A stretch of 64,000 bases of DNA from Phormidesmis sp. (GTDB lineage Bacteria > Cyanobacteriota > Cyanobacteriia > Leptolyngbyales > Leptolyngbyaceae), in contig CBDFJR010000002.1 in NCBI GenBank assembly GCA_965248535.1, forward strand, positions 1,472,001 through 1,536,000, in the 5' to 3' direction. Made by a program: the position numbers and the translations under genes. The notes below the pieces were generated by a model. The model had not been told where the DNA came from. It ran no database searches and worked only from the letters and a program-made list of their open reading frames with translations. Positions 46,054 to 57,205 of the stretch are shown here, one piece after another. Position 1 is the first letter of the stretch. Every line of letters starts with the position of its first letter.

Positions 46054-46442
46054 GTGTTGGAGGAAGGCAGTATTTCTAGGCTATTGGCAGGGGAAGGAAG
46101 CGTAGGGCGTTGTGGAGAGTTACTAAAGCTGGGGCGTAGAGGCGATAATTTGACTCCCCATCATGTCCCGTCTAATGCGTACATGGTGGCTAAAGTATCA
46201 GGCTATACGCGCAATATGGGAATTGCTATTATGATGGAGCATCCCATACCAGGGGCGGGCAGTCTCCAGATTTGAGCCTTTTGTCTAGACAAGTCCTTGC
46301 TAAAGAAATTTAGGATCTGCGATCGCTCTATCGACAGGAAGGTGTTTACACAGAAACAATCAGGTGCGGGTTATGGGCAATCATTCAATTAAACCAATCG
46401 GCTTGGACTGGTGTTTTTGAAAAGGAGAAAAACCCTGTATGA
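46054..46442 (+). pseudogene. Decayed polymorphic-toxin C-terminal domain (His-rich nuclease-like)
   Basis: GDNLTPHHVPS...MEHPIPG, then a frame change to SPDLSLLSRQVLAKEI*DLRSLYRQEGVYT...VFEKEKNPV*; its TGA overlaps the ATG of the immunity gene. Confidence 0.65.
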
Positions 46443-46873
46443 GTCAAAATCCACTGATTGAGGTGCTAGCTGCGAATCGATTGCTGCGATCGCCCGATGA
46501 AGTTGCCCGATTTGAGCAAACTCTAGAAAAGCTGGCTCAAAATCCCGACCCTAAGGATTTACCTAGTCTTCACCTAATTCTGGATGATGCCTGTGAGCAA
46601 CCGGAAGTGATGTTTAGCCTGGTGCATTTTTTAGGATCTTTTGAAGTGCAGGAACAGGTGCGATCGTTTATTCAAGTGATGCCTGATTTGGTCAAACGAG
46701 CAGCAGAATGGACTGCGATTTTGCATTCTCGGATGATGAATGATGAGGTTGCGCGATCGGTGTTTGAGGAAGAGATGCAGGCTATAAATAATCAGAAACA
46801 AAGTGAAATCCACCAGTTGCTTTCGCTAGCTTCAACAAAGATTTCTTCAGGGCTGAGAACAAAAGTAGCTTGA
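46439..46873 (+). CDS. Imm30-like immunity protein
   Basis: NRLLRSPDEV..FE..L...LDDACEQPEVMFSLVHFL...AAEWTAILHSRMMN helical pattern. Confidence 0.75.
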   Translation: MSQNPLIEVLAANRLLRSPDEVARFEQTLEKLAQNPDPKDLPSLHLILDDACEQPEVMFSLVHFLGSFEVQEQVRSFIQVMPDLVKRAAEWTAILHSRMMNDEVARSVFEEEMQAINNQKQSEIHQLLSLASTKISSGLRTKVA

Positions 46874-49056: not shown

Positions 49057-49298
49057 CTTGTTCTAACTCAATGTTGGGACGGGATTGAGCATTGAAATCA
49101 CCGTGGGATTTAGGAGAAAGATACATCGAAGCACTTAACGGTTGATTCCACCTGACAGATGAGATGTGTCAAAGTGGAAATACATAAATCGTAAAATGTC
49201 GTCGCCGCTTCCTCAGCCAAGATTCACCATTTAAACTACAAAGGATCAGGGTTTGGTTAGTGCGCGATCTGAGTTCTCTCCTAGTTGCCAATTGCCTT

Positions 49299-52200
49299 AT
49301 GAACAGTCTTTTTCTCGCTCGTCTTCACAGCCCCGATCGTCCTGTGCTCGTTTTTGATGGGGCAATGGGCACCAATCTACAAGTGCAAAATCTCACCGCC
49401 GACGACTTTGGCGGAGCCGACTATGAAGGCTGTAACGAATATCTGGTGCACACCAAACCCGAAGCGGTCGAGAAAGTGCATCGAGATTTTCTGGCGGCCG
49501 GGGCAGATGTGATCGAGACGGACACCTTTGGCAGCAGTTCTTTTGTGTTGGCTGAATATGACTTAGCTGATCAAGCTTACTATCTGACCAAAACGGCCGC
49601 GGAGTTGGCGAGACGAGTGGCCGATGAGTTTTCGACCGTTGAGAAACCGCGTTTTGTGGCAGGCTCGATCGGGCCCGGCACCAAGCTCCCAACTCTAGGA
49701 AACATTGACTATGACACCCTCAAAGCCGCCTTTGCAGAACAGGCAGAAGGGCTGTATGACGGGGGCGTAGACCTGTTTTTGGTCGAGACTTGTCAAGATG
49801 TGCTGCAAATCAAAGCGGCGCTGAACGGCATTGAGCAGGTGTTTCAGAAAAAGGGCGATCGCCGTCCTCTCATGGTGTCGGTGACGATGGAGATTCAGGG
49901 CACGATGTTGGTCGGCTCAGATATCAGCGCGGTGCTGTCGATTTTGGAGCCGTACCCGATCGATATTTTGGGGTTGAACTGCGCGACGGGGCCCGATCGC
50001 ATGGCAGAACACATTAAATATCTGTCGGAGCATTCGCCCTTTATTGTCTCTTGCATTCCTAACGCGGGCTTGCCCGAAAACGTCGGCGGCCACGCTCACT
50101 ACAAGCTTACGCCGATGGAATTGAGGCTGGCGTTGGGTCGGTTTGTTGAAGATTTGGGCGTGCAGGTGATTGGGGGCTGCTGTGGCACTCGACCCGATCA
50201 TATTCAACAACTGTCCGAGGTCGCGTCAACACTAAAACCCAAAGAGCGTCCGGTTCGTAGCAATGGGCAGATAGCGGCGCGTCCGGCTTTGCATTACGTG
50301 CCGTCGGCGGCTTCGATCTATAGCGCTCAACCCTATGAGCAAGATAATTCGTTTTTGATTATTGGCGAACGGCTGAATGCCAGTGGCTCTAAAAAGTGTC
50401 GCGATTTGCTGAATGCAGAAGATTGGGATGGACTGGTGGCGTTAGCCCGATCGCAGGTCAAAGAAGGCGCACATATTCTCGATGTCAACGTCGATTATGT
50501 CGGGCGCGATGGCGTGAAAGATATGCACGAGTTGGTGTCTCGGCTCGTGACGAATGTGAATTTGCCGCTGATGCTCGACTCGACCGAGTGGGAAAAAATG
50601 GAAGCCGGACTGAAGGTGGCCGGGGGCAAATGTTTGCTCAACTCCACAAATTACGAGGATGGAGAAGAACGGTTTCTGAAAGTGTTAGAACTCGCTAAAG
50701 AATATGGAGCGGGGGTGGTGATTGGCACGATCGATGAAGATGGTATGGCGCGAACGGCGGAAAAGAAGTTCGCGATCGCGCAGCGGGCCTATCGTCAAGC
50801 CGTTGAGTTTGGCATTCCGCCCTATGAGATCTTTTTTGACACCTTAGCGTTGCCGATCTCAACCGGAATTGAGGAGGATCGTGAGAATGGCAAGGCCACG
50901 ATCGAGTCTATTCGCCTGATTCGTGACCATCTGCCGGGATGTCACATCACCCTAGGCGTTTCTAACATCTCGTTTGGCTTAAATGCGGCGGCGCGGCAAG
51001 TGTTGAATTCGACCTTTTTGCACGAAGCGACTCAGGTGGGAATGGATAGCGCCATTATCAGCGCTGCCAAGATTTTGCCGATGGCAAAGATCGCCCCAGA
51101 GCATCAAGAAATCTGTCGCAAACTGATCTACGACGAGCGGCAATTTGACGGGGATATCTGCGTCTACGATCCGCTTGGAGAGTTGACGACGATCTTTGAA
51201 GGCGCAACGACCAAGCGCGATCGGGCTGAAGACGCTAAACTCCCGATCGAGGAACGTCTCAAGCGTCACATCATCGACGGCGAACGCATCGGACTCGATG
51301 ACGCACTTAAAGTTGCGTTAGACAAATATCCACCTTTGGAGATCATCAACGTCTATCTGCTAGACGGCATGAAAACGGTCGGCGAATTATTTGGGTCAGG
51401 TCAGATGCAACTGCCGTTTGTGCTGCAATCTGCTGAAACTATGAAGTCTGCGGTCGCATTTCTAGAGCCACTGATGGAGAAGAAAGAAGCCGGACAGTCG
51501 AAGGGCGTAATGCTAATCGCAACGGTGAAAGGAGACGTTCACGACATTGGTAAGAACTTGGTAGATATCATTCTCACCAACAATGGCTATAAAGTGATCA
51601 ATCTGGGAATTAAACAGTCTGTAGACAAGATTATTGATGCTTATATGGAACACAACGCTGATTGCATTGCGATGAGCGGCTTATTGGTGAAGTCAACGGC
51701 TTTCATGAAAGAAAATCTGGCTATCTTTTAACGAAAAAGGGATCACAGTGCCAGTGATTTTAGGCGGTGCAGCACTAACGCCAAAGTTTGTCTCTGAAGA
51801 TTGTCAAAAAACCTACAACGGCCGAGTGATCTACGGCAAAGATGCATTCTCTGATCTCCACTTTATGGATAAGTTTATGCCTGCTAAGCATAATGGCGAG
51901 TGGAGTGATCTGAAAGGTTTCTTGAATGAAGAATCTACAACCGAGTTAATCGAACCTGCTACGAATGAAAAAACGGTAGATTTAACGGAGACTAGCTCTG
52001 AACTGTTGCCGGAGGACTTGGCCCGATCGGAGTCGATCGATCCCAATATTTCTCGCCCTACGCCGCCTTTCTGGGGCACCCAGATCCTGCAACCGTCTGA
52101 TCTCCCGTGGGATGAACTGTTTTGGCATTTAGACTTGCAGGCATTGATTGCGGGACAGTGGCAGTTTCGTAAACCACGAGAGCAGTCTCGCGAAGATTAT

Positions 52201-52857
52201 GACCAATTTCTAGCCGAAAAAGTCTACCCAATTCTCGAAACCTGGAAGCGTCGCATTGTTGAGGAAAATTTGCTGCATCCTCAAGCAATTTATGGCTATT
52301 TTCCCTGTCAGTCAGAAGGCAACTCGCTATATCTCTATGATCCAGAGAATACGAAGGAGCAAGTGGCGGAATTTAAGTTTCCCCGTCAGCGATCGCTGCG
52401 TCGCTATTGCATTGCTGACTTCTTTGCATCGAAAGAATCGGGGCAATTTGATGTCTTCCCGATGCAGGCGGTGACAATGGGCGAAGTCGCCACCCAGTTT
52501 GCAAAAACGCTGTTTGAGGCGAATAATTACACCGATTATCTCTACTTTCACGGCATGGCGGTTTCGATGGCAGAAGCCCTTGCTGAGTGGATTCACGCTC
52601 GAATTCGCCGCGAGTTGGGTTTTGGTGACGCAGACCCCGACAACATCCGCGATATTTTGGCACAACGCTATCAGGGTTCTCGCTATAGCTTTGGCTATCC
52701 GGCGTGTCCCAACATTCACGATCAATATAAACTGCTGGAATTGTTGGGGAGCGATCGCTTAAATCTGCACATGGATGAGAGTGAACAACTCTATCCCGAA
52801 CAGTCAACAACGGCGATCATCGCCTATCACCCGGCAGCGAAATATTTCAGCGCGTAG
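49299..52857 (+). CDS. metH: B12-dependent methionine synthase with a one-base frameshift at 51726-51729
   Basis: [42 protein letters not shown], then VILGGAAL and [10 protein letters not shown] in the +1 frame; removing one T gives [19 protein letters not shown]. Confidence 0.93.
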
Positions 52858-52931: not shown

Positions 52932-53534
52932 GTGATTGCCATGCAAGCCACAGAAGTCAAAAAACGCTACACCCCAGAAGAGTACCTGGCTCTCGAAGAA
53001 AAAACTGAGTTCAAAAGTGAATTCCATGATGGAGAAATCATTCCGATGACAGGCGGATCGTTCAATCACAACGAGATTCTTACCAATCTGTGGCTCCTGA
53101 AGTCTAGGCTGCGTGGTAAAGGGTATCGATTTTACTCTAGTGACGTTCGCTTGTGGATTCCTAAGTATCGCAAGTTCACCTATCCCGATGTGATGGTGAT
53201 TCAAGGTGAACCTGCGCCCTACAACAATCGGACTGATACATTGACGAACCCTCTATCTATTATCGAAGTCCTATCTAAATCCACGGAAGATTACGATAAG
53301 AGGGACAAGTTCAAATACTACCGATCGATTCCTGAACTTCAAGAATATGTATTGATCAATCAATATGACTTAGAGATTCAGCAATACACTAAATCAGATG
53401 GTGGCTTCTGGATTTATCGTGTGTACGAATCGACTGAGGATATTGTGAAGTTTGTCTTGATCGAGGTCGAGATGACCGTCGCCGAGATCTACGAAGGCAT
53501 CTCGTTTGAAGAAGTTAGTCCACCAGAGTCGTAA
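52932..53534 (+). CDS. Uma2 (DUF820) family endonuclease
   Basis: YTPEEYL, MTGGSFNHN, YPDVMV, IIEVLSKST...DKF. Confidence 0.92.
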   Translation: MIAMQATEVKKRYTPEEYLALEEKTEFKSEFHDGEIIPMTGGSFNHNEILTNLWLLKSRLRGKGYRFYSSDVRLWIPKYRKFTYPDVMVIQGEPAPYNNRTDTLTNPLSIIEVLSKSTEDYDKRDKFKYYRSIPELQEYVLINQYDLEIQQYTKSDGGFWIYRVYESTEDIVKFVLIEVEMTVAEIYEGISFEEVSPPES

Positions 53535-53555: not shown

Positions 53556-54173
53556 ATGACTTCAGTCATTGTTCATCAGTCGGAGTTGAGTTTTGAGGCT
53601 TTTGTCGATCGCTACCTAGACCACGATCGCTATGAGTTAATCGATGGAGAATTAATTGATTTGGAACCTACGGGACTTCATGAACAAGTAGCGGGATTTG
53701 CGAATCGTAAACTCAATGTTGAGATCGATCGTCTAAATCTACCGTGGCTAATTCCCATGAAGTGCCTGATCAAGCCACTGAGTCTAGCTTCAGCGTTTCG
53801 CCCAGATGTTGTGATTCTAGATCAATCTGTGTTGAGGAATGAACCGTTGTGGCAGCGTGAGCCTGTGATCACGATGGGACGCTCTATAAAGCTAGTAATC
53901 GAGGTGGTCAGCACCAATTGGCAAAATGACTATGCCCGAAAAGTAGAAGACTATGAGGCGTTAGAAATTCCAGAATACTGGATCTTGGATTATTTGGGTC
54001 TGGGTGGTAAGCGTTATATTGGTCTACCAAAGCAGCCTGTAGTTACGATTCATCAATTAGTCAGTGGGGAATATCAGAGTCAGCAGTTTCGAGGAAGCGA
54101 TCAATTAGTTTCTCCAACATTTCCAGAATTGCAAATAACAGCCGCACAAGTTTTTGCAGCAGGAGACTCTTGA
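53556..54173 (+). CDS. Uma2 (DUF820) family endonuclease
   Basis: RYELIDG, RPDVVIL, VIEVVSTNWQNDY, IPEYWI, SPTFPEL. Confidence 0.92.
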   Translation: MTSVIVHQSELSFEAFVDRYLDHDRYELIDGELIDLEPTGLHEQVAGFANRKLNVEIDRLNLPWLIPMKCLIKPLSLASAFRPDVVILDQSVLRNEPLWQREPVITMGRSIKLVIEVVSTNWQNDYARKVEDYEALEIPEYWILDYLGLGGKRYIGLPKQPVVTIHQLVSGEYQSQQFRGSDQLVSPTFPELQITAAQVFAAGDS

Positions 54174-54272
54174 CGAGTAAATAACTCCTCAGTTACAAAA
54201 ACATCAGTTCGATAGAAGGGGTTCGCTCTGATTGCGAATTTGAGAAGCAAGACTACTTGTTAGACTGACGTT

Positions 54273-54294
54273 AAAAAAGGGCACGATCGTGCCC
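54273..54294 (-). terminator. Terminator after the ParB-like gene
   Basis: Minus strand reads GGGCACGATCGTGCCC followed by TTTTTT. Confidence 0.65.
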
Positions 54295-54320
54295 CATCAC
54301 AACTCCTAAATTTGTAGAGA

Positions 54321-54872
54321 CTATGCAATGATCAATGTCTCTGCAAGAGCAGGTAACTTTGCTTTACCGATCCCACATTTTAGTTTTGTTAAGAAGACGA
54401 GGCTTGTGATTTTGTTTTTCTCGCGATAATCTACGATCGCTTGAGCGACTTTCTGAAGATTCAACTTGCTGAACTCTGCTTTTCTTGATTGAACGAACTT
54501 CAGTGCGTTTACAAGCTCTTGATCAGAAGCGGTCAAAATGTTGATCCGAACGATTTCTCCAGTTTCAACTTCTACCTGAGATTGCATTGCGGCATCTACA
54601 ACAATACAACGAACAAAATCTAGCCCAGCTTGTTTGGCAGCCTCAAGAATATGAGTATTCAAGGTTGCTTGATAGTCGTCTTCACCAAGTTCTCGCACAA
54701 TCACAGGAAGGACATTTTTCCCTTGAACTTTTAGTTCTTGTGCAATGGTTTGAATCACAATTTCTTGAGTATCTGCTTTTCCTCGAACATATTTACAAGC
54801 AATGCGTAGCACTTTACCAAGTTGAGTGTCGATCGACAAATTTTTAGAGTGAGCTTCATGGCAGTTAATCAA
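54321..54872 (-). CDS. ParB-like N-terminal domain plus HhH/ComEA-like C-terminal protein
   Basis: GKNVLPVIVRELGEDDYQ...AAKQAGLDFVRCIV (ParB/Srx-like), RINILTASDQEL...CGIGKAKL (HhH-like); start uncertain. Confidence 0.6.
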   Translation of the reverse strand: MINCHEAHSKNLSIDTQLGKVLRIACKYVRGKADTQEIVIQTIAQELKVQGKNVLPVIVRELGEDDYQATLNTHILEAAKQAGLDFVRCIVVDAAMQSQVEVETGEIVRINILTASDQELVNALKFVQSRKAEFSKLNLQKVAQAIVDYREKNKITSLVFLTKLKCGIGKAKLPALAETLIIA

Positions 54873-56280
54873 TGAAATTGTGATTGAGAAAAACTTCGTT
54901 GGTTAGTTCGGCATAGCGCTTGGCAATGGAAGAACTTTGCCAAGAGATGACAGGGACTCCCTTGAACTCAGCAATTTTTGTCTGGACATAGGTATTTAGC
55001 CTTGCTTTGTACTGCTTCCCAGAAAAATTATGTTCGGTGAGTTTTTCATCAATTGCTTTTTTGAGAACTAGGCTGGCTTCCTCAGTTGGGCAGTTACTAA
55101 AAACAAGTCCTAAACTCCAAGGTGAATAGCCTAGAGATTTTGATGCTCTCAGTTTACGGAATGCTGGAATGTGATTTTGATGCACATTCATGGCATGATG
55201 TAGGGCTTTACCTCCCAGATCAACGGGAATTAAATTCACATCACAGGTCATGAAAGCACATCCCGCAAGTTCATCGTAGGCCGGTGCGAATATCAATGAA
55301 AATGTAGTCGTAATCCGACTTTAGCAACCCAACCAATTTTCTGAAGATAGAATTGGCTCAAATGCTAGATCGTCTTCATCATCACGAAATCTCAGCAAGA
55401 AATCCCGCTCACACGGTAGTACAGAAACAGAATATCTGTGTCTGATAAACCCAAATGTTGAAAACGGACAATCTCGAATAGCATTTTTGAGAATTTAGAA
55501 GCCTGCTCTAAATCACCTCGTTGAATGAAATCAGCGCAAGGAGTTAGATAGTCAACAATTTGTTCACTTTTGATTCCTAATCCTCGTGATAAATCACCTT
55601 GAGGATCTAAATCAATCAGCAAAACTCGCTTACCTTTTAGCGCGAGAGTTGCGCCAATATTAATTGCATTGGTTGTTTTAGCAACACCGCCTGCCTGATT
55701 CCAGATGTTGCTGAGACTAGTGCAGATGGTTTGCTGTGCAAGCAGTCTGCTAACTGTCTCATTAGTTTTGGCAAGCTTTCTTCTGTCACTTTTTGAATTG
55801 GAGTTAGTGGAAAAATTAAACCATCAACTCGTCGCCAAATTTGAAAGAAATCGCCATTAAAAACCCAACCGTAGGAAGCTAAGAACCTTTGAGGGACGAC
55901 ACCGTTGTCAAGATACTGTTGAATTCCATTCTGCTGAGGGGCGTTATACCCAACTGCATCTCTTAGTGGCGCGGGGTGAATGGCACACATCTTCAAAGAA
56001 GTAACCTGAGAAAGTTTTGGGTTTCCACCTCGGCTTTTGCTTTCAATTACTAAGATGGGTGGCTCTAGATCACAGTAAACAAGCAAGTCAGGAATGCGCC
56101 CAGGCGAGATTGCTTGAGCCATTTTTTAACGGGAAGCTGAAACCACAGGCTGCTAACATTGGTAAGTTAGCATCTAATGTTGCTGAAGCTATCATTCGCT
56201 TCCAAATATCAATGACAGCTTGAATTTGGTTCTTGGAAGGCTTGATTGCTCAAACTAGAAAGTTCGGCGGCAGCTACCAT
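54865..56280 (-). pseudogene. PD-(D/E)xK (HsdR_N-like) nuclease-ParA ATPase fusion, multiply frameshifted
   Basis: IPDLLVY...[18 protein letters not shown] (55671-55703); [19 protein letters not shown] (55292-55312); C-terminal GVPVI...AKRYAELTNEV; segments lie in different frames. Confidence 0.75.
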
Positions 56281-56486
56281 GCGATATTCTTTACTTTAAC
56301 TTTGCTTCAGAGTTCCCGAAAATACTTTGAGGGATCGACTGAGTTGAAAAATTAAAGTAAAAACGTGTCGATCGCTTCCCCGCTGCATAGAGAAGCTGTT
56401 GTTGTTCAGTTTGGCAACAATCAAATGACGACCTTGGGGTGGCGATCGTCAGCAATCCATCTATGTCAAAATCATGAGGTAATCCC

Positions 56487-56737
56487 ATTTCTCTAACCAC
56501 TGTGCAGGCTTTTAAGGCCGTAGAACTCTGCCAAAGTCTCTCCAACCTGTTTCGGAACATATATCTTTTCCGATTTGATTCCCTAACCGGAGAGATTTAT
56601 ATCCTTGCCGAGGAAACCATCACTGTCATTAGGCAAAATGGAAGCGACTATTTAGACAAAACCAAACTTTGAGGCAATGAGTAAAGAAGAACTGAGAGCT
56701 TATGTTCTTCATCGAGACGATGATGAGGCTATCAGAG
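56487..56737 (+). pseudogene. First, degraded DUF6888/DUF6887 copy
   Basis: TTATGAC has become TTAGAC, removing the stop/start overlap; the DUF6887 part is cut off after DDDEAIRA. Confidence 0.7.
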
Positions 56738-56840
56738 CGTGTCGATCGCTTCCCCTCTGCATAGAGAAGCCAACTCAAATGATGACCTTGGGGTGGCGAT
56801 CGTGGGCAATCTATCTATGTCAGAATCATGAGGTAGACCC

Positions 56841-57017
56841 ATTACTCTAACCACTGCACAGGCTTTCAAAGCCGTTGAGCTTTGCCAAAGCCTCTCCGAC
56901 CTGTTTCGGGACATCTATCTTTTTCGATTTGATTCCCTAACCGGAGAAATTTATATCCTTGCCGCAGAAACCATCGAAATTGTCATCCAACAAAACGGAA
57001 GCTGGGACTATTTATGA
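56841..57017 (+). CDS. DUF6888-like small protein, probable ATT start (absent from ORF track)
   Basis: ITLTTAQAFKAVELCQSLSDLFRDIYLFRFDSLTGEIYILAAETIEIVIQQNGSWDYL*; GAGGT lies 6 nt before the ATT; ATGA overlap with the next gene. Confidence 0.65.
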   Translation: MTLTTAQAFKAVELCQSLSDLFRDIYLFRFDSLTGEIYILAAETIEIVIQQNGSWDYL

Positions 57018-57205
57018 CAAAACCAAACTTTGAGGCAATGAGTAAGGAAGATCTGAGAGCTTATGTTCTTGCTCATCGGGAGGACGACGAGGCAATCAGA
57101 GCGCTCTTTAGTCGTCGCGATCCTAATAAACCGTTCTATAGCTATGACCTGAGTCCTGAGGAGACGCAAGAGATTATCAGGCGCAAAATTGCAGGGGAAC
57201 TTTGA
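57014..57205 (+). CDS. DUF6887-like small protein (putative antitoxin)
   Basis: MTKPNFEAMSKEDLRAYVLAHREDDEA signature. Confidence 0.8.
   Translation: MTKPNFEAMSKEDLRAYVLAHREDDEAIRALFSRRDPNKPFYSYDLSPEETQEIIRRKIAGEL

Follow-up and report, generated by a model that had tools for sequence, protein, structure and literature searches.

Why should a ParA ATPase, a member of a family whose proteins are the textbook positioning machines of bacterial cells, be joined to a region resembling the nuclease of a restriction enzyme? The question is raised by two adjacent minus-strand genes in a 64,000-nucleotide (nt) stretch of the Phormidesmis sp. assembly GCA_965248535.1 (contig CBDFJR010000002.1, positions 1,472,001 to 1,536,000), referred to as a whole as the window. 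The first is a fusion gene, encoding a nuclease-fold domain (the N-domain) followed by ParA, and the second encodes a smaller, ParB-like partner protein. The original prediction from the DNA sequence had considered this pair to be an undescribed system, in which ParA gates a nuclease that plausibly functions in defence. The analysis reported here instead found that the locus very probably belongs to a cyanobacterial two-gene family, the effector-ParAB systems. The complete explanation favoured here, of an effector-ParAB member acting in conflicts between replicons, with a copy that cannot be read in this assembly, and a gene that has also been deleted within the population, has about an even chance of being correct. 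What is new in the window is a family member, a lineage-limited change in Walker A and a population polymorphism, and not a new kind of system.

The fusion and its partner match the effector-ParAB architecture

The effector-ParAB system was defined computationally by Li, Burroughs and Aravind on 22 October 2026 (bioRxiv 10.64898/2026.10.19.760177). In the available portion of that preprint, to which all statements made about it here are limited, the definition comprises a ConB1-clade ParA that carries an effector at its N-terminus, most often a restriction endonuclease (REase), and a ParB, encoded in the same operon and predicted inactive, in which a helix-hairpin-helix (HhH) or Rho-N HeH domain replaces the helix-turn-helix (HTH). 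The marks given for the ConB1 clade are a Val in Walker A, and the PriB1 features of an Asn before Walker A and a Gln after DxD. These systems are described as over-represented in multicellular bacteria, such as cyanobacteria, and are predicted on purely computational grounds to have an immune role, with the proposal that invader DNA is statically coated, and the effector serves as a back-up.

The effector of the fusion was identified through a predicted structure. The first approximately 185 residues, which precede ParA, corresponded to no Pfam family, and neither this N-domain nor the partner exceeded the cut-offs of any family in Pfam, NCBIfam, PHROGs or PADLOC; a sequence profile of the N-domain also identified no solved relative among the chains of the PDB (best expectation value (E) 0.93). 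An AlphaFold2 (AF2) model, based on an alignment of 28 homologues with a Leptolyngbya locus as the first sequence, had a predicted local distance difference test score (pLDDT) of 93.9 and a predicted template modelling score of 0.90. The best structural match was to the nuclease domain of DrdV (7lo5_A; Z score 11.7, with a root-mean-square deviation (rmsd) of 3.0 over 136 aligned residues), followed by BpuSI (3s1s; Z 11.3), a Vibrio HsdR fragment (3h1t; Z 9.9) and EcoR124I HsdR (2w00; Z 8.6), with further restriction-fold proteins among the lower-ranked matches, and the same group was placed at the top by Foldseek. The residues of the D..ExK motif (D59, E75 and K77) were invariant in 28/28 homologues, as was a GDFFQ..R.VDG block in the alignments, and in the model this motif sits on the strands where the PD-(D/E)xK fold places its catalytic residues. 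As modelled, the N-domain is a PD-(D/E)xK fold of the HsdR/type IIG kind, which bears out the HsdR_N-like assignment made from the sequence.

This fold is shared with the type IIG/IIL and type I restriction enzymes (DrdV, BpuSI and HsdR), in which the nuclease is likewise N-terminal to an enzyme module, but the fusion is without their helicase, methyltransferase and specificity parts, and has no detectable sequence relation to them. Rather than the HsdR-type layout of an SF2 helicase with HsdM and HsdS, it is a ParA ATPase that follows the nuclease, and no methylase is nearby. The N-domain family is very small, with only 52 relatives identified at E<=1e-3 among 1.84 billion representatives, nearly all of them either N-terminal in proteins of 430-500 amino acids (aa), or short fragments. 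When longer proteins were sought with a 161-aa N-terminal fragment, most of the 120 matches were 460-490 aa in length, and those with names were labelled as ParA or AAA ATPases of cyanobacteria.

The middle and C-terminal pieces of the fusion encode ParA (Pfam AAA_31, E 9.9e-17; CbiA, E 3e-13). Across the family, the invariant features of this part are both Walker A lysines, DxD..Q and Walker B, and all three of the ConB1 sequence marks are present (WN.KGGV.K and DLDPQ), such that this ParA is a candidate member of the clade. The family Walker A, KGGV[AGS]KTT, retains the signature Lys of canonical ParA in all 36 of the fusion loci described below, whereas this residue is Ala only in the window and in its closest intact homologue, P0001. 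The Ala codon is also covered by X1, one of two public sequencing runs that hold this stretch, and no difference is listed there. Hence the substitution is a trait of the lineage and not of the family, and the missing Lys reported by the original prediction is true of the window, and of P0001, but not of their relatives.

The partner was modelled from an alignment headed by the window's own sequence (pLDDT 89, with residues 1-14 disordered). Residues 20-107 adopt a predicted ParB/Srx fold (KorB, Z 11.2; sulfiredoxin, Z 10.4; PadC, Z 10.2), and residues 108-183 a ComEA-like (HhH)2 fold (ComEA 8dss, Z 7.8, rmsd 2.0, 27% identity); the matches to the Pfam ParB_N (E 0.0059) and NCBIfam TIGR00426 (E 2.7e-5) models were below their cut-offs. 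The position of the GERR box is occupied by N-x-Q/H-I-L in 27/27 members of the partner family, such that both fold and motif suggest a degenerate nucleotide site, with predicted inactivity, while the site-reading HTH is absent, and (HhH)2 stands in its place. The model and the structure search thus agree with the earlier description of a ParB-like protein lacking GxxR, with an HhH C-terminus. Four homologous partners (L013 7398-8192, L017 7392-8186, L034 7413-8204 and L023 7487-8293) are longer, at 264-269 aa, and contain a second HhH after a proline-rich linker. The other replacement within the definition, Rho-N, was found in a different species of the same genus (L070, G407:C117, 288-2308), which encodes a divergent 446-aa fusion (IIDYAVRK ... 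LLLELKGR), and a 227-aa partner ending in Rho_N (28.2 bits, over the cut-off), at a genomic place other than that of the window's locus. A complex prediction for the full fusion and partner scored 0.01, without controls, and has no bearing either way.

The association of these two proteins was consistent across genomes. A scan employing one genome per species yielded 51 loci, of which 36 (L002-L037) matched along the fusion, with 33 titled as cyanobacteria and three as uncultured bacteria; the other 15 matched the ParA part only, and came from haloarchaea, a Sulfurovaceae genome and an Erysipelotrichaceae genome. A partner homologue was directly downstream in 36/36 fusion loci, compared to 0/15 of those with ParA only, and hence the co-location anticipated for homologues was found throughout. 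In the window the two genes form a tight operon, as the TTG start of the partner lies within the stop region of the fusion gene. In its operon order, its domains and its ParA sequence marks, the architecture corresponds point for point to effector-ParAB as described in the available portion of the preprint, and the proposal of an undescribed system falls by an outcome that it had itself named as refuting it. The departures of the window from that description are the Ala of its lineage, and the broken frame of its copy. The accompanying statement, that no characterised system has this architecture, holds as regards experiments.

Two other groups share parts of this arrangement. Type Ia ParABS (P1 ParA/ParB and F SopA/SopB) has an extra N-terminal domain on ParA, with a ParB-fold partner downstream, and the NCBIfam RepA and SopA models align from approximately profile position 105, leaving an N-terminal extension in both. 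In type Ia systems an HTH forms this extension, ParB contains both an HTH and the GERR CTP box, and the locus includes a centromere. The pair in the window showed no such feature, as it differs in its extension, and has neither the GERR CTP box nor the parS-reading HTH of canonical ParABS. No centromere-like repeat was shared between 28 loci and the window when k-mers were counted in the 400 nt upstream and 600 nt downstream of each pair, and the count yielded nothing but HIP1-type words and a small number of repeats specific to single loci. The second group is ParA-HeH, of the same ConB1 clade, the HEPN-effector subtype of which is cited as experimentally antiphage in Salmonella (bioRxiv 10.64898/2026.10.19.760177). 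It also combines a ConB1 ParA with a small DNA-binding partner, but, as far as that source sets out, the HeH partner is not of the ParB fold, and the effector is a separate gene. The available parts of PMC3424549 and PMC12704722 do not mention the fusion, and those of PMC10899382 and PMC12839542 contain no ParA, but only unrelated words.

The family is patchily distributed, and is found on plasmids

In a sample of the phylum, the N-domain profile matched 8/401 genomes at E<=1e-10, and 33/401 at 1e-3. The weaker matches represent a divergent subfamily, of approximately 456 aa, that keeps the same layout, and 5/6 of the divergent members examined retain the D, E and K. Both counts are lower bounds, because the profile misses some divergent members, as exemplified by the pair on contig C117 of G407, which was reached only via its partner. 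Within the genus, this N-domain was found in 0/7 of the other species' genomes (65-100% complete), and DNA comparisons found that the metH-Uma2 and DUF6887-alr sides of the locus were conserved, and that nothing in the interval separating these sides matched the pair. The flanks of 15 loci were variable between genera and mainly housekeeping, with toxin-antitoxin genes no further than 5 kb from the pair in seven of these loci.

Some copies were incomplete. The gene at G131:C1:1734206-1735976 is interrupted by approximately 1.2 kb; that at L022 5195-7224 lacks the N-domain, with an IS4/5-type transposase open reading frame (ORF) directly upstream; L026 5971-7424 is split into 360 and 115 aa; and in Waterburya (L037 6127-7511) a 282-aa ParA without the nuclease domain is accompanied by the partner. 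In G059, the best AAA_31 match of the genome (G059:C1:5783552-5784088) falls within an open frame of 469 aa that is unmatched by the N-domain profile, and is approximately 2 kb from a second ParA-like ORF; this frame may encode an effector-ParA with another type of head.

The N-domain was also encoded by five cyanobacterial plasmid records, two of which are the same plasmid in two strains of one species. A six-frame search found the pair to be the sole ParA/ParB-like module of a 12.6-kb Pseudanabaena plasmid, which has a CyRepA1 replication gene, and of pLBA, a 77.8-kb plasmid of Leptolyngbya boryana, while canonical ParA and ParB were also present on one plasmid of Nostoc (30.7 kb) and another of Pseudanabaena (225.6 kb). 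In G059, there are fusions on small contigs of 55, 36 and 31 kb, all three of which also contain a canonical pair; the 31-kb contig may be the Nostoc plasmid replicon, and the two were counted once. Across distinct small replicons, the pair was therefore alone in 2/6, and beside canonical ParAB in 4/6. The available portion of the preprint does not discuss plasmid copies that are the only ParAB. On the 12.6-kb plasmid, eleven same-strand copies of GTAACAG, clustered with related 8-bp units, are found just past the partner gene (L065 411-880), compared to approximately 1.5 expected by chance over the whole plasmid, and these could be centromere or origin iterons. On pLBA, a Uma2 gene is directly upstream of the pair (L067 9590-10117).

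The locus in the window

The coordinates of the pair and of its associated features are listed in Table 1. A 183-aa gene, followed by a terminator-like hairpin and T run at 54295-54278, is located downstream of the fusion as had been described. As had also been noted, no rep gene or methylase was identified by Pfam among the ORFs at 38-64 kb of the window, and no iterated repeats were found beside the pair, except for GCGATCGC-type words.

Table 1. Positions of the fusion gene, the partner gene and their associated features in the window.
Feature	Position	Strand	Basis or remark
Fusion gene, PD-(D/E)xK (REase-fold) domain and ParA ATPase	54866..56280	-	At least six frame pieces in assembly; intact homologues 460-505 aa
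N-terminal nuclease-fold domain of fusion	55725..56280	-	Homologue AF2 model, fold search
PD..ExK motif (IPD ... VIESK) of N-domain	~56036-56089	-	
Deviant Walker A of fusion, Ala for signature Lys	55671..55703	-	
Partner gene, 183 aa, TTG start	54321..54872	-	ORF, fold model
Terminator-like hairpin and T run, 3' of partner gene	54269..54295	-	
10-bp direct repeat GTGTCGATCG, copy 1, left edge of deletion allele	54826..54835	+	Public runs
10-bp direct repeat GTGTCGATCG, copy 2, right edge of deletion allele	56739..56748	+	Public runs

The neighbouring ORFs at 38-64 kb are mainly housekeeping by their Pfam matches (phosphoketolase, FtsH, metH, alr and an MscS channel), and the pair itself is adjoined by two Uma2 genes and two DUF6887 copies. 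The Uma2 (DUF820) genes, which are of the restriction fold, are adjacent to each other at 52932-53534 and 53556-54173 (+); as Uma2 is very common in cyanobacteria, their proximity to the pair may be due to chance. On the other side, 56364-57205 is a tandem duplication with a unit of approximately 360 bp, and a 201-nt core that is 89% identical between copies, containing two small DUF6887 ORFs, of which that at 57014-57205 is complete, and that at 56677-56850 aligns with the initial third of the family only. Further away, an ORF of the polymorphic-toxin immunity family Imm30 (46439-46870, +) is directly upstream of a gene for a 689-aa pentapeptide-repeat protein. The metH gene, encoding the B12-dependent methionine synthase (49260-52857, +), is split into ORFs of 823 aa and 369 aa by a break at approximately 51724-51731, apparently one extra T in a TTTT run, which may be either a homopolymer assembly error or a recent frameshift.

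Frame breaks are concentrated in a segment that is absent from the deeper allele of public runs

From its ATG at 56280 to its stop at 54866-54868, the fusion gene is not read in a single frame, with its motifs spread over three minus-strand frames. All of the motifs originally quoted, and the start codon, were present across these frames, and the suggestion that the fragments stitch into one gene was confirmed by a tblastn search with the intact P0001 (503 aa), which aligned as a single gene across at least six frame changes (near 56250, 56115, 55712, 55494, 55340 and 55285), with a few residues missing. An apparent in-frame stop (LV*AIK) was considered as a mutation and then dropped: it lies in a frame that is non-coding at that point. 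The partner ORF, by comparison, has no sign of decay, and differs from the family at 2 of the 29 columns that are highly conserved, where family members range from 0 to 7.

The two public runs holding this stretch, X1 and X2, come from one study, and were compared as contigs. Relative to window positions 54806-56300, a contig of 1,556 letters (X1#6) differed by eight substitutions and by 55 letters in gaps, almost all of which are letters missing from the window, in 23 insertion or deletion (indel) events over 1.5 kb, while the adjoining 54300-54835 had 0 gaps relative to the run contigs. The insertions in X1 of five letters at 56233, and of two at 56126, are of the modulo-3 sizes required at the first two frame changes, and the totals of the other listed gap clusters are 9, 6, 3 and 12. 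At the later frame changes, the gaps of 2, 1 and 4 letters in the X2 pieces are likewise of fitting size, and the frame change at approximately 55340 is covered by the X1 contig alone.

Depth was 21-25 over the partner gene, compared to 4.9 for the fusion-gene contig. Contigs with a depth of 16-21 leave the window at 54835, and resume with the sequence of 56749, with the join falling within the 10-bp direct repeat GTGTCGATCG. In the resulting deletion allele the fusion gene is missing, as are the 12 initial codons of the partner and one of the DUF6887 units, and the right edge of this allele falls within the DUF6887 tandem duplication. The indel-rich part of the window starts at the edge of the segment that is missing from this deeper allele.

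The frame breaks of the fusion gene are probably consensus errors, in a segment carried by a minority of the population, a reading favoured because small deletions are many, substitutions are few, and the deletions do not extend beyond the minority-allele segment, a pattern that marks a weakly supported consensus and not decay. The alternative, that the copy is a true pseudogene, with the frame breaks being real mutations in the strain, is less likely. It would account for the frame changes, and for the small in-frame losses relative to P0001; most of the breaks are outside long homopolymers; other genomes contain broken or truncated members (L022, L026 and G131); and a clean deletion of the gene exists in the same population. 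Also against consensus errors, several of the indels are 4-6 nt in length, and the protein collection contains no near-identical long protein, with P0001 the best at 87%, such that an uninterrupted allele is inferred from gap sizes only. Yet in bacterial pseudogenes substitutions outnumber indels, and a total of 23 indel events to eight substitutions in 1.5 kb, with none in the 535 nt alongside, departs widely from what neutral decay would produce. The indels are nearly all letters absent from the window, and confined to the minority-allele segment, and the same assembly has a homopolymer frameshift in metH.

Discussion

The shared architecture suggests a mechanism through which positioning machinery could be turned to conflicts between replicons. 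The partner would bind DNA without sequence specificity via its HhH domain and, as ParB does for ParA, would set the place and time at which the ATP-sandwich dimer forms on DNA. This ATP-driven dimerisation of ParA on DNA would pair two nuclease domains, which may then cut, or hold, the DNA of an invading or competing replicon. Such a mechanism is plausible, at a little under an even chance. An accessory or conflict role is consistent with the patchy spread of the family, its variable flanks and broken copies, the co-residence with ParAB on 4/6 small replicons, and the presence/absence polymorphism. The idea of a ParA-gated nuclease, plausibly functioning in defence, thus agrees with the prediction made in the available portion of the preprint, while the plasmid-borne copies leave room for a role in maintenance. 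Several observations weigh against a function in conflict. The literature yielded no experiments on any family member; there was no consistent adjacency to defence genes in 15 loci, but only scattered toxin-antitoxin genes; no PADLOC model matched, beyond a weak P-loop match to the candidate PDC-M28B; and none of 50,697 phage records had a copy. The divergent member L064 is without the D and K of the catalytic motif. ParB uses a basic residue in its N-terminal tail to stimulate ParA, and no conserved basic residue of this kind was found in the disordered N-terminal tail of the partner.

The main rival to the conflict mechanism is sustained by the two plasmids on which no other ParAB-like module was found, the 12.6-kb CyRepA1 plasmid and the 77.8-kb pLBA. 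Under this explanation, the pair is a partition or maintenance module, a variant of type Ia-like ParAB that positions plasmids, or the copies of a polyploid chromosome, in which the nuclease-fold domain would be a head for DNA binding or regulation, and the HhH partner would act as an adaptor independent of sequence. The order of the genes in the operon matches that of ParAB, as do the two core folds, the pair is carried by five plasmid records, and the eleven GTAACAG iterons are just downstream of the partner on the smaller plasmid. However, a mere binding head would not need a catalytic triad that is invariant in 28/28 homologues, the partner is without a site-reading HTH or GERR box, no repeat array beside the pair is common to 28 loci, canonical ParAB is on the same replicon in 4/6 cases, and the family is present in only 8 to 33 of the 401 sampled genomes; a maintenance role is judged unlikely. 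Plasmid carriage would also suit a toxin-antitoxin-like addiction module, in which a nuclease-ParA toxin, restrained by the ParB-like partner, stabilises the plasmid or island that carries it. The tight operon with its stop/start overlap, the toxin-antitoxin genes within 5 kb in 7/15 loci, and a deletion allele that removes the nuclease gene together with the start of the partner are all in keeping with addiction, but the effector-first gene order, and the large size of both proteins for such pairs, are not, and there is no direct evidence of toxicity. That the window has an open partner beside a broken nuclease gene is compatible with either reading, and addiction appears improbable overall.

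The conflict mechanism can also be extended into a more specific scenario, quite unlikely in all its particulars, in which the pair is a weapon of one replicon against another. A degenerate ParB, recognising the structure of DNA and not its sequence, would license the ATP-dimerised nuclease, and both plasmids and chromosomes would carry the pair beside their own ParAB to cut or immobilise their rivals; the Lys-to-Ala change would represent a costly variant, impaired in hydrolysis, that is being shed from the population, with the intact allele now in the minority, and the deletion in the majority.

In the window, what appears to be a pseudogene is probably an assembly artefact, overlying a real presence/absence polymorphism. 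Strains that can be cultured carry intact copies on small plasmids, pLBA in Leptolyngbya boryana and the 12.6-kb plasmid in Pseudanabaena, and these represent direct experimental handles on the family. Combining a conserved restriction-type nuclease with a ParB lacking the CTP box, this family would show how the switch used for partition has been rewired for chemical action on DNA.

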